Shown here piece after piece: positions 21,232-53,842 of a stretch of DNA of 64,000 nucleotides (its first letter is position 1; each line of letters opens with the position of its first letter). Source of the DNA: Acaryochloridaceae cyanobacterium VAR_48_metabat_390 (GTDB taxonomy: Bacteria > Cyanobacteriota > Cyanobacteriia > Thermosynechococcales > Thermosynechococcaceae). A program made the position numbers and the translations under genes. The stretch lies in contig JANPLU010000123.1 of NCBI GenBank assembly GCA_031422435.1, positions 37,671 to 101,670 of the forward strand. Reading direction: 5' to 3'. The notes beneath the pieces are model-generated. The model made no database searches. It was not told the origin of the DNA and worked only from the letters and a program-made list of their open reading frames with translations.

Positions 21232-21316
21232 CGGAGAGGGAGGGATTCGAACCCTCGTTAAGTTGCCCTAAACAGCATTTCCAGTGCTGCGCCTTCAACC
21301 GCTCGGCCACCTCTCC
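21232..21316 (-). tRNA. tRNA-Ser(GGA)
   Basis: Reverse complement GGAGAGGTGGCCGAGCGGTTGAAGGCGCAGCACTGGAAATGCTGTTTAGGGCAACTTAACGAGGGTTCGAATCCCTCCCTCTCCG folds as a cloverleaf with anticodon GGA and a long variable arm. CCA is not encoded. Confidence 0.97.
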
Positions 21317-48666: not shown

Positions 48667-50961
48667 TTAACTAGCAGAGGGTTCTTTGCTATCGGCAAGC
48701 AGTATATCCATTTTGTAGACAAGTTGCTCTGGGTTTAGAGGTTTAGTCAAGAAGGTATCTGCACCTGCCGACAAATAAGGCTGTGGCTCATTGAGGGCAG
48801 ATTTTGGCGCAAGGGCAATAATTCTCATGGGGTGATTTTCGCTGAGTTGACGAAACTGCTGAATCAGCTTTAACCCATTGCCTTTGGACCGATCTACGCT
48901 AACGATTGCCGCAACAGGATGCAAAAACTGAATCTGCTGTAAAGCCGTAGAGTCTTCAACAATCCAAACGACGTGGTAGCCAGCGGCGGTTAGCATCTCA
49001 CAGATGAGCGTGGCGCTTTCTTCGTTGTCTTCGATCAAAACAACCCGTGCATTTAGCTCGCTGGTATAGCGCGATCGCCCCAATTCTTCGTCGCCCATCA
49101 ACAGCTTTTGATTAGGGATCTCGACGGTAAAAGTAGAGCCTTGTCCTTCTACAGAGCTGACCTCAATCCAGCCTCGGTGTAAATCCACAAGCTGTTTGGC
49201 AATGGCTAAACCCAACCCTGCCCCTTCATAGGAGCGACGGTAGGAGGCATCTAGCTGCTGAAATTTTTGAAACAGCAGCGACTGCTGTGTAGAAGGAATA
49301 CCAATGCCACTGTCTTCGACCTGAAAAATAGCGGCGTTGGGTTCAACCCAGACGCGCAGGGTCACTTCCCCCTCCTCTGGCGTAAACTTAATGGCGTTAG
49401 AGATTAGGCTAAACAAAATTTCTTTTACGCGCCGCGCATCGGCGACAAACCGATCTCGCTGAGGCATGATTTTAAGGTTTAACCGGAGCTGAATGTCGTT
49501 TTTCTCCGCCGTTTCGCGCAGCATCTGGACACTTTGCTGCGCTAAGGCTGTGAGCGAAAACTCACTGAGATTCAGAACCGCTTTGCCTGACTCAGCTTGG
49601 GAAAAATCCAAAATGTCGTTAATTAGCTCTAGCAGATGCTCGCCGCTGTCATGGATAGTCTGGAGATAGCCGCGCTGCTTATCGTTGAGCGGCCCCAAAG
49701 ACCAACGCAGGAGCGTGGCGGACATGCCAATGACGCAGGTGAGTGGGGTTCGTAGCTCATGGCTCATGGTGGCTAAAAACTCGCCCTTAGCGCGGTTTGC
49801 AACCTGAATTTCAGCTAGCGCCTCGCTCAATTCTTGGGTACGCTGTTCGACCTGCTCTTCGAGGGTTTGCTTTTGTCCCTGGAGCTGCTGATAGAGCTGA
49901 GCCTGATGGATGGCGATCGCCAAATGTTCTGTTACCTGTTCTAAAAACTCAATCTCGCGCGCCTTCCACTCATGGGGTTGTCCGCAGTGGTGGGCAATAA
50001 GCAGCCCCCAAAGCTGATTTTGTACCAGCAGTGGCGTTACAAACTGCGCTCGTACCGCATAATCTTCATGCAGCAGCCCGACGGGGCCATCTAGCAAATC
50101 TAACGCGCTGGCGGCAGCAGCCGAATTTGCAATCCGCTCCCCTTTGCAGTATGCCTGATACGTTTTAGCGCTGGTCGCCCACTGATGCTTGGCCGGAGTC
50201 AGCGGCGCAATCGCTTCGCTAGAGCAGGATTCATAGGCAATGCTGCCACTACGAACCGTGAATGTAGCGTTTGCCCGTTTTGACTTTGGGGGTGATATTG
50301 GTGCATCAAACTGATAAATCAAGAGCCGATCCACGGAAAGGCATTCTCGAATTTTATGGACGGCGGTCTGCAAAATAACGGGCAGTTCCAGACTCTGACG
50401 AATTTGAGCCGTGACTTGGTTAATGAGCTGCTCTTGTCGTACCTGCTGATGAAGGGCTGCGTCCACAATAGGACGGCAGGTGGACGCAGAAGGAAGCTGT
50501 TGGGCGGTGAACTGCTGCTGCCCTAACAGTTCACACAGTTGCTGAATCAGTGCTTCATAGGCAGAGGCTGCACCGGAAGACTGGATTGGAATCGCAAGCG
50601 CTTGCGTGAACTGCGCCTTTAGGGCAGGCTGTTTTGTGACCTGCGATCGCAGTTTTTTGAGAAATGCAGCAATGGTTTTAGCCTCAAAGCTTAAAACAGC
50701 GGCTTCTGTCACTTCAGCGCCAGCCAATTCAGCCCGCAGCAAAACGCGAAACTCGGGCGTCACCATCACCAGAAAGCGTGAGGATGCCGTAAGGCCAGCC
50801 GCCGTCAGCAAATCATCGGTTAACGTAATGCCGCCGTTTTCATTTTGTGCAATGCTCTGGCTTAGGTTCAAAAGCGCTGCTTTAAGGGTTTCAACCTCAC
50901 AGGGCACCTGTATTTCACCTGAAGAAACAACAGCGGCAGCAGCAGAGAGTTGTGTTGTCAT
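48667..50961 (-). CDS. cikA: Circadian input kinase CikA-like (GAF-HisKA-HATPase-pseudoreceiver)
   Basis: EFLATMSHELRTPLTCVIGMSATLLRW is characteristic of CikA. The C-terminal receiver lacks the canonical phospho-Asp context. Confidence 0.85.
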   Translation of the reverse strand: MTTQLSAAAAVVSSGEIQVPCEVETLKAALLNLSQSIAQNENGGITLTDDLLTAAGLTASSRFLVMVTPEFRVLLRAELAGAEVTEAAVLSFEAKTIAAFLKKLRSQVTKQPALKAQFTQALAIPIQSSGAASAYEALIQQLCELLGQQQFTAQQLPSASTCRPIVDAALHQQVRQEQLINQVTAQIRQSLELPVILQTAVHKIRECLSVDRLLIYQFDAPISPPKSKRANATFTVRSGSIAYESCSSEAIAPLTPAKHQWATSAKTYQAYCKGERIANSAAAASALDLLDGPVGLLHEDYAVRAQFVTPLLVQNQLWGLLIAHHCGQPHEWKAREIEFLEQVTEHLAIAIHQAQLYQQLQGQKQTLEEQVEQRTQELSEALAEIQVANRAKGEFLATMSHELRTPLTCVIGMSATLLRWSLGPLNDKQRGYLQTIHDSGEHLLELINDILDFSQAESGKAVLNLSEFSLTALAQQSVQMLRETAEKNDIQLRLNLKIMPQRDRFVADARRVKEILFSLISNAIKFTPEEGEVTLRVWVEPNAAIFQVEDSGIGIPSTQQSLLFQKFQQLDASYRRSYEGAGLGLAIAKQLVDLHRGWIEVSSVEGQGSTFTVEIPNQKLLMGDEELGRSRYTSELNARVVLIEDNEESATLICEMLTAAGYHVVWIVEDSTALQQIQFLHPVAAIVSVDRSKGNGLKLIQQFRQLSENHPMRIIALAPKSALNEPQPYLSAGADTFLTKPLNPEQLVYKMDILLADSKEPSAS

Positions 50962-51263: not shown

Positions 51264-52229
51264 GTGCAAGACGCGCTCATTATCGAACTGCCCAACCCTC
51301 AAAGCGCGATGTCGCTGGCGGGTGAGCAAGAATCTAATCTCAAAACCCTTGCAAAACAAACGGGTGCGCGGCTGCTACTGCGCGGTCAAGAACTCAGCAT
51401 TTTTGGCACAGAAGCGCAGACGACCCTTGCTCGCGAGATGATTTATCTGCTGCAACACTTTTGGCGCGAAGGGCGTGCTATTTCAGATGTGGATATTTTG
51501 GCGGCTCGCCATGCCCTCAATACCGACAAAATGGAGGAATGGCGATCGCTCCAAGATGATGTCCTCGTCAAAACCCGACGGGGAGAGGCCATCCGAGCCA
51601 GAACCTTTCGTCAAGGGCAGTATATTAAGGCCATTCGTCAGCACGCCATTACCTTTGGCATTGGTCCTGCTGGCACAGGCAAAACCTTTCTCGCTGCCCT
51701 CATTGCGGTACAGGCACTTTTAGATAACGAGTACGAGCGAATCGTTCTGACGCGCCCTGCTGTAGAAGCTGGCGAAAAGCTCGGTTTTTTACCCGGCGAC
51801 CTTCAGCAAAAAATTGACCCCTACCTGCGCCCTCTCTACGATGCACTCTACGAACTCATTGACCCAGAACGCATTGCTTCTCTGATGGAGCGTGGAGTAA
51901 TCGAAGTCGCGCCCTTGGCCTACATGCGAGGACGCACCCTCAACAATGCCTTTGTTATTCTAGATGAAGCCCAAAACACCACCCCCGCCCAGATGAAGAT
52001 GATGCTGACCCGCATTGGCATGAAGTCTCGCATGGTGGTGACGGGTGATTTAACCCAGACAGACCTACCGTCTCATCAGACCTCAGGACTGGCGATCGCC
52101 CGTAAAATCCTAGAGCCAGTTGAAGGAATTGCCTTTTGCTATCTGTCTAAAGGCGATATTGTGCGCCATCCCCTCGTCGAAAAAATTATTGAGGCTTACG
52201 AACTTTACGAAGGTGATTCTCTGTCTTAA
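51264..52229 (+). CDS. phoH: PhoH-family ATPase
   Basis: GPAGTGKT, RPAVEAGEKLGFLPGD, MRGRT, DEAQN and VRHPLV. Confidence 0.95.
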   Translation: MQDALIIELPNPQSAMSLAGEQESNLKTLAKQTGARLLLRGQELSIFGTEAQTTLAREMIYLLQHFWREGRAISDVDILAARHALNTDKMEEWRSLQDDVLVKTRRGEAIRARTFRQGQYIKAIRQHAITFGIGPAGTGKTFLAALIAVQALLDNEYERIVLTRPAVEAGEKLGFLPGDLQQKIDPYLRPLYDALYELIDPERIASLMERGVIEVAPLAYMRGRTLNNAFVILDEAQNTTPAQMKMMLTRIGMKSRMVVTGDLTQTDLPSHQTSGLAIARKILEPVEGIAFCYLSKGDIVRHPLVEKIIEAYELYEGDSLS

Positions 52230-52255
52230 CCTAAGGCGACCTCTAGCGCCAATCC

Positions 52256-52297
52256 AACGAAAGAACTAGCTGTATCTATACAGCTAGTTCTTTCGTT
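52256..52297. terminator. Perfect 20-bp inverted repeat, probable bidirectional terminator
   Basis: AACGAAAGAACTAGCTGTAT-CT-ATACAGCTAGTTCTTTCGTT. Confidence 0.75.
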
Positions 52298-52357
52298 TAT
52301 CTATTTAGAGCAGGGTAGAGAACGCGTCATGCCAAGCTCAGTGTCAAGAAGAGGAAA

Positions 52358-52460
52358 AGTCCCTTCGGCACTAGCAGCATCCATACCCCTCAATGCTGTT
52401 TGGATTAGGCCTGCTAATTTGCGCCCTGACCTTTCGGTACAGTTTGCCATTTCGGGGACT
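52358..52460 (-). ncRNA. c-di-GMP-I (GEMM) riboswitch aptamer
   Basis: Minus strand reads AGUCCC-CGAAAU-GGCAAAC-UGUACC-GAAA-GGUCAG-GGCGCAAA-UUAGCA-GGCCUAA-UCC...GGAUGC-UGCUAG-UGCCGAA-GGGACU. This gives P1 AGUCCC/GGGACU, a GNRA tetraloop, a CCUAA tetraloop-receptor strand, the CGCAAA junction and P3 UUAGCA/UGCUAG. Confidence 0.85.
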
Positions 52461-52503
52461 ACGTGGGCCATGCGGGGGGTATGACAGCCCAATCAACTCA
52501 ATC

Positions 52504-52591
52504 AATATAGCGATTAATACACCTATTCTCATACCGTATTTCTACGGGATTTTTTAGAATTTCCACCATTTTAGTTTCCGTGTTTCTTCGG
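52504..52591 (-). promoter_or_regulatory. Candidate promoter of the aptamer RNA with palindromic operator-like sites
   Basis: TATATT -10-like hexamer (52509-52504), perfect CCGTA-TTTC-TACGG at 52534-52547 and degenerate CCGTG-TTTC-TTCGG at 52578-52591. Confidence 0.45.
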
Positions 52592-52834
52592 TTGAGCGTG
52601 TACTTTTTTATAAATTCAGGATACTCAATCGACAGCTTAAGTTTTGAAAGTCTTTTCTGACAAGATTTTTAAGGTTACGCACGGTTTGATGACCATCGCC
52701 TCATAGCGAAGTTAAGTAAGATAAGACCCATAGGTCTGAGGGGTTAATTCACGTACACTAATAATCTATCGGTTACTGATCCGTGCGATTAGTGCGATCG
52801 CCCATTATTCATCTTCGGTCAATCAATTTTTTGT

Positions 52835-53842
52835 ATGGGACAAAAGCGCGTTCTTTCTGGGGTACAGCCGACAGGCAGCCTACATTTAGGCAATTATCTA
52901 GGTGCCCTGCGAACCTGGGTGAGCGAACAATACGAGTACGAAAACTACTTTTTTATTGCAGACCTCCACGCCATTACCGTCCCTCACGACCCTAAAGTTT
53001 TAGCCGAAAATACCTATACCCTAGCGGCGCTATATCTCGCCTGTGGACTCGACGGTGCCCACACCACCATTTTTGTTCAGTCTCAGATTTCAGCCCATGC
53101 CGAATTGGCATGGCTGTTTAACTGCATTACGCCACTCAACTGGCTTCAGCGCATGATCCAGTTTAAAGAGAAGGCCATTAAGCAGGGCGAGGATGTCAGC
53201 ATTGGTCTGCTAGACTATCCGGTGCTGCAAGCCGCCGATATTTTGCTATACCAGGCCGATCTTGTTCCCGTGGGGGAAGACCAAAAGCAGCATTTAGAGC
53301 TAACCCGAGATATTGCTGCTCGCTTTAATTTTCAGTTTGGCAAGCCCAAGGCTCCCGTTTTGAAAATACCAGAACCCCTCATTCGTCCAGAAGGGGCGCG
53401 GGTGATGAGCCTCACGGACGGCACCAAAAAAATGTCTAAGTCAGACCCCTCTGAGCAAAGCCGCATTAATTTACTAGATTCCCCCGATGAGATTCGCAAC
53501 AAAATCAAGCGCTGTAAAACAGACCCCATGCGCGGACTAACCTTTGATGACCCAGAACGACCTGAATGCCAAAATTTGCTCACGCTGTACATGCTGCTGT
53601 CGGGTAAATCGAAGCCAGCGGTTGCCGCAGAATGTGCCGAGATGGGATGGGGACAGTTTAAGCCGCTCCTGACGGAAACGACGATTGAGGCACTCAGACC
53701 CATTCAAGAAAAGTACCGCGACTTAACAGAAGACCGTAGCTATATTAAAACTATCTTGCAGCAGGGACGTGAGCAGGCTGAAGCAGTTGCCCAACAGACC
53801 CTTCAAACGGCTAAAGATGCCCTAGGCTTTGCGAGAGAATGA
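52835..53842 (+). CDS. trpS: Tryptophan--tRNA ligase
   Basis: SGVQPTG.LHLGNYLG, YPVLQAADILLY, VPVGEDQKQH and KMSKS. Confidence 0.97.
   Translation: MGQKRVLSGVQPTGSLHLGNYLGALRTWVSEQYEYENYFFIADLHAITVPHDPKVLAENTYTLAALYLACGLDGAHTTIFVQSQISAHAELAWLFNCITPLNWLQRMIQFKEKAIKQGEDVSIGLLDYPVLQAADILLYQADLVPVGEDQKQHLELTRDIAARFNFQFGKPKAPVLKIPEPLIRPEGARVMSLTDGTKKMSKSDPSEQSRINLLDSPDEIRNKIKRCKTDPMRGLTFDDPERPECQNLLTLYMLLSGKSKPAVAAECAEMGWGQFKPLLTETTIEALRPIQEKYRDLTEDRSYIKTILQQGREQAEAVAQQTLQTAKDALGFARE

Follow-up and report, generated by a model that had tools for sequence, protein, structure and literature searches.

A c-di-GMP-I aptamer without a downstream gene belongs to a cyanobacterial family of candidate c-di-GMP-sensing small RNAs

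The c-di-GMP-I (GEMM-I) riboswitch, with Vc2 of Vibrio cholerae as its prototype, was reportedly described by Sudarsan in 2008. The systems closest to the locus studied here are given as in the excerpted text of the papers cited. A tetraloop and its receptor are present in about half of GEMM instances (PMC1950547). The merRNA of Bdellovibrio bacteriovorus is 445 nt long and, in that excerpted text, is reported by its authors from Bdellovibrio only (PMC3627812). EutX/Rli55 of Enterococcus and Listeria contains an aptamer that, when bound to AdoCbl, stabilizes a terminator at its end, which results in a short sRNA without the effector site (PMC5821096). The SAM-I riboswitch of Desulfovibrio vulgaris is described as also being a trans sRNA, and its downstream gene is controlled in cis (bioRxiv 10.1101/803072). 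Finally, LhrC1-5 of Listeria are multicopy sRNAs with C-rich loop motifs that pair with G-rich ribosome-binding regions (PMC4132741).

The locus lies in a 64,000-nucleotide stretch of cyanobacterial DNA, called the window below, and all positions are those of the window. When the whole window was run through cmscan, a match to RF01051 (c-di-GMP-I) was obtained at 52458-52364 on the minus strand, with 45.9 bits (gathering cut-off 35), an E-value of 8.9e-6, and model positions 1-87 of 87 covered. The same aptamer scored an E-value of 1.2e-7 against the whole genome. A sequence-only reading of this DNA had claimed a complete GEMM-I aptamer on the minus strand and had named the Rfam c-di-GMP-I covariance model as a check; the significant, full-length match in both searches bears that claim out. 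The aptamer is found between two protein genes, together with the following features:

52835-53842, plus strand: trpS, the divergent neighbor (PF00579, E 7.7e-84)
52504-52532, minus strand: promoter predicted by a consensus scan, with a -35-like ATGAGA (52532-52527), a spacer of 17 nt, and a -10 TATATT (52509-52504)
52464-52491, minus strand: 5' hairpin, with arm UGGGCUGU (52491-52484), loop CAUACCCCCCGC (52483-52472), and arm AUGGCCCA (52471-52464)
52358-52460, minus strand: c-di-GMP-I (GEMM-I) aptamer including P1 (RF01051, 45.9 bits, E 8.9e-6)
52460-52455 and 52363-52358, minus strand: P1 of the aptamer, AGUCCC paired with GGGACU, 6 pairs of which 4 are G-C
52346-52357, minus strand: U-rich tract directly 3' of P1, UUUCCUCUUCUU, which together with P1 has the geometry of an intrinsic terminator
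52301-52345, minus strand: 3' extension, made up of GACACU, a small hairpin with arms GAGC (52339-52336) and GCUC (52311-52308), and UAAAUAG (52307-52301)
52330-52301, minus strand: 9-codon ORF MTRSLPCSK, inside the 3' extension and not conserved
52256-52297, no strand assigned: 19-bp hairpin with a 4-nt loop, inner stem 52290-52279 / 52274-52263, and flanks AAACGAAA and UUUCGUU
51264-52229, plus strand: phoH, the convergent neighbor (PF02562, E 1.4e-95)

The aptamer itself is like RF01051 in its full-model match, in its two-hairpin fold closed by P1, in its GAAA tetraloop, which has a partner in a receptor-like CCUAA/UAUGG motif, and in its ligand-contact motifs. P1, GGCAAAC, the GAAA tetraloop, CGCAAA, CCUAA, and UGCCGA were each located where the sequence-only reading had placed them. 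The fold, with P1 closing two hairpins, was recovered by RNAalifold from 59 family copies, and compensatory two-sided changes were seen at 16 of its 23 pairs. In these 59 copies the GG preceding CAAAC is invariant, and the positions of CGCAAA and CCGAA either do not vary or are conserved to 90% or more. We take the G before CAAAC, an A of CGCAAA, and a C of CCGAA to be putative ligand contacts that correspond to G20, A47, and C92 of Vc2. A G, rather than an A, at the G20-equivalent position favors c-di-GMP over 3'3'-cGAMP. The G found at this first contact position argues for c-di-GMP over 3'3'-cGAMP as the predicted ligand, and the aptamer would be expected to bind it. Unlike a typical RF01051 element, the aptamer lies outside of a 5' UTR and has no gene after it, and it carries two additional modules, a 5' hairpin with a run of C residues in its loop and the U-tract behind P1. 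A 63-aa ORF that overlaps the aptamer was considered as a protein and rejected: it has no Pfam match, and in 38 of the 59 family copies each of the three sense frames is interrupted by a stop over the hairpin and aptamer.

The gap between phoH and trpS is 605 nt. Since phoH and trpS are both on the plus strand, the minus-strand aptamer is antisense to both neighbors and converges on phoH. A cis-acting leader would precede its target gene in the same orientation, whereas at this locus phoH is convergent. The convergence of phoH and the roughly 60 nt between the aptamer and a hairpin had been pointed out from the sequence, and both were confirmed, with 60 nt from the end of P1 (52358) to 52297. 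Between P1 and this hairpin, the longest ORF is 9 codons. The terminal hairpin at 52297-52256 had been described as a perfect stem of 20 bp; the stem is perfect, but it consists of 19 pairs and a 4-nt loop. It lies 26 nt past the phoH stop codon and is terminator-like on the plus strand, and also on the minus strand, where the inner stem of -16.6 kcal/mol is followed by UUUCGUUG. In five phoH-linked orthologues its structure has been kept while its sequence has changed. The 19-bp hairpin is likely a bidirectional terminator common to the RNA and phoH. In the window's own family as a whole, distal terminators were called in 22 of 60 tails, compared to 40 of 180 shuffled tails, which is a weak signal.

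Further copies of the element were found in this genome and in its relatives. The genome has three RF01051 matches, all of which face a convergent gene: phoH, prmA (contig C105), and a LysR-type gene (contig C14). The prmA-linked copy and the phoH-trpS copy are 90% identical over 142 nt. The earlier inventory had the parts of the aptamer right, but it overlooked these two genomic paralogues as well as the C6-loop hairpin that precedes the aptamer (52491-52464). Among 40 relatives, RF01051 was present in 21 of the 24 other genomes of the same family and in none of the remaining 16, which belong to different families of the same class. Several relatives have 3-7 RF01051 matches each. Altogether, the family numbers 62 copies or more across 22 related genomes, in addition to those of the Pseudanabaenaceae.

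The genes that flank these copies do not have the arrangement expected of riboswitch leaders. All 62 matches above the cut-off were taken, and flanking genes were assigned crudely, by greedy picking of ORFs with a length of 90 aa or more. One match, L004 (80.8 bits), was set aside as a conventional GEMM-I element; it lacks the 5' hairpin and is followed by a gene after 68 nt. The first downstream gene of the remaining 61 copies was convergent in 39, co-directional in 16, and not called in 6. Once copies were combined into 37 locus groups by the identity of their flanking proteins, 23 groups were convergent, 11 were co-directional, and 3 were not called. This near-random split of orientations is unlike that of 5' leaders, which are expected to be co-directional nearly always. 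The co-directional gene of the 11 out of 37 locus groups lies at a distance of 55-680 nt and, thus, some copies may still act in cis.

The pattern formed by the C-run and the 5' half of the aptamer occurs in at least 118 places in a species-representative genome collection. Among the matches listed, the record titles are mostly in two groups, while two titles belong to non-cyanobacterial MAGs. One group, Thermosynechococcaceae/Acaryochloridaceae, includes the titles Acaryochloris marina MBIC11017, Altericista sp. CCNU0014, and Petrachloros mirabilis among these matches. The other, Pseudanabaenaceae, includes many Pseudanabaena records and Tumidithrix. Pseudanabaenaceae copies share a layout of a -10 box, the C-loop hairpin, the aptamer, about 27 nt of unpaired linker (AUAUUUUGUAAUCCUACAACUGAAUAAA or a variant of it), and a canonical intrinsic terminator. 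In 26 of the 31 copies the terminator is called 26-67 nt past the aptamer and no ORF intervenes, a count that has no shuffled baseline. The stem sequences of these terminators vary, and 22 of them are at -12 kcal/mol or stronger. These copies are the clearest case of the gene-less layout.

The trpS-RNA-phoH order is kept in five further genomes, with TrpS identities of 84-96%. trpS is upstream of the RNA in nine of the ten trpS-group loci (TrpS identity 78-100%); the sequence of the tenth locus, L044, breaks off at the aptamer. The record titled Acaryochloris marina MBIC11017 has trpS upstream of the RNA too. When the locus was compared with that of a relative without phoH at this place, the conserved block extended from 52558 to 52302 and comprised the promoter region, 5' hairpin, aptamer, U-tract, GAGC/GCUC hairpin, and UAAAUAG.

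Transcription is predicted to start near 52497-52490. A -10-like hexamer is located 2-20 nt 5' of the C-loop hairpin in 49 of 59 copies, a raw count with no shuffled baseline, and TATATT is found 12 nt 5' of the hairpin in 11 copies. A MITE-like mobile element was also considered because of CTATTC repeats beside some of the copies. It was rejected, since these repeats coincide with the -10 box and the positions of the copies are syntenic across species.

The 5' hairpin is a constant part of the family. Directly abutting P1, and with a run of at least five C residues in its loop, it is found in 59 of the 59 copies with enough upstream sequence (58 by a script rule and L024 on visual inspection; contig ends truncate another two copies). 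In the window the C6 run of the loop is at 52479-52474, and in the family the run is 5-12 C long. There are 33-34 distinct stems, and the arms of a given copy form 6.85 of 7 pairs with each other, compared to 3.41 when arms are exchanged between copies. The much better pairing of a copy's own arms indicates that the stem has been kept through compensatory change, while the C-run is fixed, with invariant columns. The run is predicted to stay exposed both with and without a folded aptamer, as its probability of being paired is 0.10 without constraint and 0.05 with the aptamer constraint. Therefore, nothing ties the ligand to the loop, and by this modeling the C-run resembles a permanent handle more than a seed under ligand control.

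Several candidate partners for the loop were tried. Sequestration of the C-run by the G-rich P3 strand (CAUACCCC/GGGGUAUG pairing) was rejected because the partner strand is variable and the C-run is unpaired in 58 of 59 copies by partition-function folding. A search of the genome for a 14-nt sequence complementary to the loop, with up to 2 mismatches allowed, gave perfect matches only on the antisense strand of two of the RNA genes themselves, the phoH-trpS copy and the prmA-linked copy. RNAduplex was run against 401 G-runs near possible start codons, and one 13-bp match (contig C13) was obtained; it lies inside the coding frame of a glycine-rich protein and was rejected. We did not find a convincing extended complementary target for the C-loop in the genome, the only extended complement being within a coding region.

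The second module is the U-tract. The pyrimidine tract discussed in the sequence-only reading corresponds to 52359-52346. It had been proposed as an anti-Shine-Dalgarno sequence, an idea that was not supported, because what is conserved across the family is U-richness alone and not CCUC. At least 5 U residues are found within 8 nt past the 3' strand of P1 in 71 of 92 family copies (mean 4.95), whereas a control window placed 30 nt farther downstream reaches this number in 1 of 92; since related copies are not independent, these module counts characterize the family and do not serve as statistical tests. For an outside control, 123 metagenome loci were collected with a generic GEMM-I pattern, Rfam was run on 60 of them, and 46 RF01051 matches with a tail of at least 30 nt were obtained. 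Only 3 of these 46 unrelated GEMM-I elements have the U-tract, and none has a C-run in the 45 nt upstream. Both modules are, thus, specific to the cyanobacterial family and not a property of GEMM-I elements generally. From the arrangement of P1 and the U-tract, transcription would be expected to terminate there.

Beyond the U-tract, the hairpin closed by GAGC/GCUC, with a variable interior, is the predicted fold of the 3' extension in 7 of 8 trpS-linked orthologues. The minimum-energy fold in L021 differs, yet the same arms are able to pair. Two related copies depart from this arrangement: L060 is closed by GAAC/GUUC and L051 by other arms.

RNA libraries were searched for the element. No sequencing run contained half or more of the words of the stretch, and the RNA runs listed shared 0.04-0.07 of them. 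Contigs from freshwater metatranscriptomes of four runs (X2, X3, X13, and X16) cover 52356-52487, which is the 5' hairpin and aptamer. Their summed depths are 3.6-139 at a likeness of at least 96 and up to 179 at a likeness of 88; these are assembled environmental contigs, from which strand, ends, and level are not readable and whose source may be close relatives with an identical aptamer. One contig from X1, a run of uncertain type, reaches 52497. Some contig pieces are free of mismatches across the P3 loop that is specific to the phoH-trpS copy. The stretches 52046-52332 and 52538-52824 have no contig, although uncovered parts prove nothing and no 3' end can be derived from them. A small number of contigs match phoH and trpS in their outer parts, with 3-9 differences over 33-94 nt. 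The RNA is, thus, present in RNA libraries, with cover that is limited to the RNA body and immediate flanks that are bare, and the promoter is a prediction from consensus and conservation.

Two contigs with a prmA-type tail bear on the 3' end: one ends 19 nt past GGGAC and another continues for 94 nt. The first of these ends is farther downstream than a terminator made of P1 and the U-tract predicts and, therefore, counts against the isoform mechanism proposed below. Apparent adapter remnants join the contigs at 52481, 52484, and 52487, and at 11 nt past 52356 in a prmA-type tail, with read 1 on the plus strand in 4 of 4 cases. If the library is of the dUTP type, this orientation fits a minus-strand RNA, which is a weak hint. 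The suggestion that the element is a stand-alone RNA and not a 5' leader has gained support from the convergent genes at all three genomic copies, the terminators in 26 of 31 Pseudanabaenaceae copies, and the contig cover limited to the RNA.

We propose, with a probability of about 50%, that the element is a self-contained c-di-GMP-sensing small-RNA gene of a family present in two cyanobacterial lineages, in which P1 and the U-tract form an isoform switch and the RNA acts in trans. P1 is G+C-rich and is joined to the U-tract, so that the folded aptamer itself could serve as an intrinsic terminator, with the body of the aptamer as its loop. Binding of c-di-GMP would lock P1 and halt transcription behind the aptamer (at about 52356-52348), which would leave a short RNA of about 140 nt containing the 5' hairpin and aptamer. 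In the absence of ligand, transcription would read through over the 3' extension to the terminator shared with phoH and produce a long RNA of about 240 nt. The 3' extension would then be the part whose presence is decided by the ligand. The exposed C-rich loop is the predicted contact for a putative partner, which may be a G-rich RNA or a protein. The same switch logic as in EutX/Rli55 is proposed because P1 and the U-tract have the stem-and-tail geometry of a terminator and because that precedent exists.

The known RNAs, again as described in their excerpted texts, can be compared with this scheme. Like EutX, the element has an aptamer inside a proposed trans-acting sRNA, a predicted promoter of its own, a proposed ligand-stabilized terminator, and proposed short and long forms. 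Unlike EutX, it has another ligand and another class of aptamer, and the EutX effector site is known (an EutV-binding dual hairpin) whereas the cyanobacterial partner is putative. It resembles merRNA as a c-di-GMP riboswitch in a non-coding RNA with no conserved downstream ORF and with a proposed role other than in cis (PMC3627812). The cyanobacterial RNAs differ from it, by its description, in being a family of about 140-240 nt that is often multi-copy and has the C-loop and U-tract modules. The likeness to LhrC consists of several homologous copies per genome and a C-rich motif displayed in a loop, and it is an analogy only: the LhrC RNAs have no aptamer and their motif is UCCC, in contrast to the run of 5-12 C and the lack of a target found in the genome for the cyanobacterial family. 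A role in trans, proposed here, is shared with the SAM-I riboswitch of D. vulgaris, but the phoH-trpS element has no downstream gene.

In a more far-reaching and tentative form of this proposal, which is possible but in our judgment rather doubtful, the RNA would be a modular receptor. The aptamer would be the terminator, c-di-GMP would pick the isoform, and the invariant C6 loop would dock on a dedicated partner; with several copies retained per genome, these RNAs would be a main c-di-GMP output. In this genome, GGDEF is matched 18 times and PilZ once.

One alternative explanation is that several strongly transcribed copies take up and release c-di-GMP as a sponge or buffer with no regulatory output, in the manner suggested for merRNA. 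The 3-7 copies per genome in several relatives, the ratio of GGDEF to PilZ matches, and the depth of the contigs compared to their uncovered flanks (although per-cell abundance is not readable from contigs) would all agree with it, and the merRNA proposal itself has been published (PMC3627812, excerpted text). Nevertheless, the aptamer alone would suffice for such a role, and the invariant C-run on a covarying hairpin, the U-tract, and the conserved 3' linker would be left unexplained. We therefore regard a sponge as unlikely. Less likely again is a ligand-gated antisense RNA or transcriptional interference, by which low c-di-GMP would allow read-through into the convergent 3' end, here that of phoH, and expression would go down. 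An S-box riboswitch controls an antisense RNA in Clostridium acetobutylicum, P1 and the U-tract could gate read-through, and the gene is convergent in 23 of the 34 determinable locus groups, with a median gap of about 135 nt. That count, 23 against 11, is not clearly unlike random orientation, and the convergent genes vary by locus (phoH, prmA, the LysR-type gene, and others). Moreover, the 19-bp hairpin, with U-rich flanks on both strands, separates the RNA from phoH, and the Pseudanabaenaceae copies end in strong terminators, so this explanation appears quite improbable.

A relic riboswitch, in other words the leftover leader of a deleted gene that was retained by chance, seems very improbable. 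Its best evidence is a same-genus relative in which a co-directional ORF of 290 aa is found 204 nt downstream of the element, and another related genome with an ORF of 220 aa at 509 nt. However, the 290-aa ORF has no homologue in the studied genome and lies behind a terminator-like hairpin, and the gene-less layout between trpS and phoH, which had been suggested for comparison among relatives, is that of five further genomes. The aptamer, hairpin, and U-tract are intact with compensatory changes in two lineages, and the element is found in RNA libraries. Just as improbable is a cis leader, either of the 9-codon ORF at 52330-52301 or of the histidine-kinase gene at 48667-50961, which would be reached across the antisense strand of phoH. 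The 9-codon ORF does exist, as the sequence-only reading had said, and the kinase gene, some 1.4 kb downstream, has the orientation of the RNA. The micro-ORF lacks a start codon in L043 and L017, though, and its codon changes follow the pattern of the hairpin, so that the idea of a micropeptide falls together with that of a relic, given the intact synteny and the terminator before the 290-aa ORF. The kinase gene, in turn, would need a leader of about 1.4 kb that is antisense to phoH and passes through the 19-bp terminator hairpin, and within the 3-kb loci a kinase start was found only in the studied genome and in L030 (66% identity over 32 residues).

Gene-less riboswitch RNAs such as merRNA and EutX are already known, and what is new here is the cyanobacterial family, with its C-loop and U-tract modules and its multi-copy layout. 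No description of a c-di-GMP riboswitch RNA in cyanobacteria was found in the literature searched, which contains few of the subscription journals. Records titled as cultured strains, namely Acaryochloris marina MBIC11017, Altericista sp. CCNU0014, and several Pseudanabaena, carry the family, which makes the proposal directly testable. If the isoform switch is real, it would be a second, independent case of the EutX principle, in which a riboswitch determines which form a trans-acting RNA takes. Receptors for c-di-GMP are described as scarce in cyanobacteria in the excerpted text of PMC12448109, and a conserved, often multi-copy family of gene-less aptamers with two modules would be an RNA-based c-di-GMP output. 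With 18 GGDEF matches to a single PilZ match, RNA receptors could weigh in the c-di-GMP signaling of this genome. Should the modular-receptor reading be true, the family would be a main c-di-GMP output in cyanobacteria that are rich in GGDEF enzymes but have hardly any known receptor proteins.

A small hairpin was found just upstream of the predicted -35 region of the RNA element, the gene-less c-di-GMP-I (GEMM-I) aptamer on the minus strand between phoH and trpS. Some 100 nt away from the start of trpS, on the other strand, there is a terminator-like site at a position with no annotated feature:

Window 52534-52547: small hairpin, CCGTA-N4-TACGG
Window 52724-52737, minus strand: terminator-like site, AGACCTATGGGTCT followed by TATCTTACTT

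The hairpin is followed by a T-run on the plus strand. A similar sequence occupies the equivalent position in the trpS-linked orthologues, in the related copy L060 and in the prmA-linked paralogue, another copy in the same genome. G-U wobbles are present in the hairpin of two orthologues, and these fit better with pairing in a minus-strand RNA. The hairpin might terminate antisense transcripts, serve as an operator, or form a piece of a longer RNA. Elsewhere in the window, at 21232-21316 on the minus strand, there is an unrelated tRNA gene (RF00005, 62.7 bits) whose variable arm is long.

Three GEMM-I copies in the related genomes are described individually:

L014, G020:C117:17519-17608: copy with the C-loop, the run of at least five C in the hairpin 5' of the aptamer
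L028, G020:C117:18040-18132: C-loop copy in tandem with L014, about 520 nt apart
L004, G006:C70:2243-2329: conventional GEMM-I, 80.8 bits

The tandem pair is followed, after 159 nt, by a co-directional ORF of 447 aa, the start of which resembles an SMC/SbcC-type ATPase. L004 is the sole match in the 22 genomes that lacks the C-loop hairpin; a 392-aa ORF lies 68 nt downstream of it, and this copy may be on a foreign contig of its assembly.

Among the matches listed from the C-run/aptamer pattern scan, L092 and L101 came from MAGs titled Gemmataceae and Rhizobium. The sequence of L101 resembles the Pseudanabaenaceae type, which suggests that its presence in a non-cyanobacterial MAG is a binning error. 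L092 may be a chance match, since a script scan of the locus detected only the 5' part of the pattern and no aptamer 3' half.

The unpaired linker that joins the U-tract, the U-rich stretch directly behind P1, to the distal terminator contains a conserved A-rich motif (ACAACUGAAUA, with variants). It is carried by the Pseudanabaenaceae loci L067-L141 and also by L005, L013, L033, L052 and others. In the window's RNA element, the motif seems to be split by a GAGC/GCUC hairpin. The A-rich motif is common to both cyanobacterial lineages.
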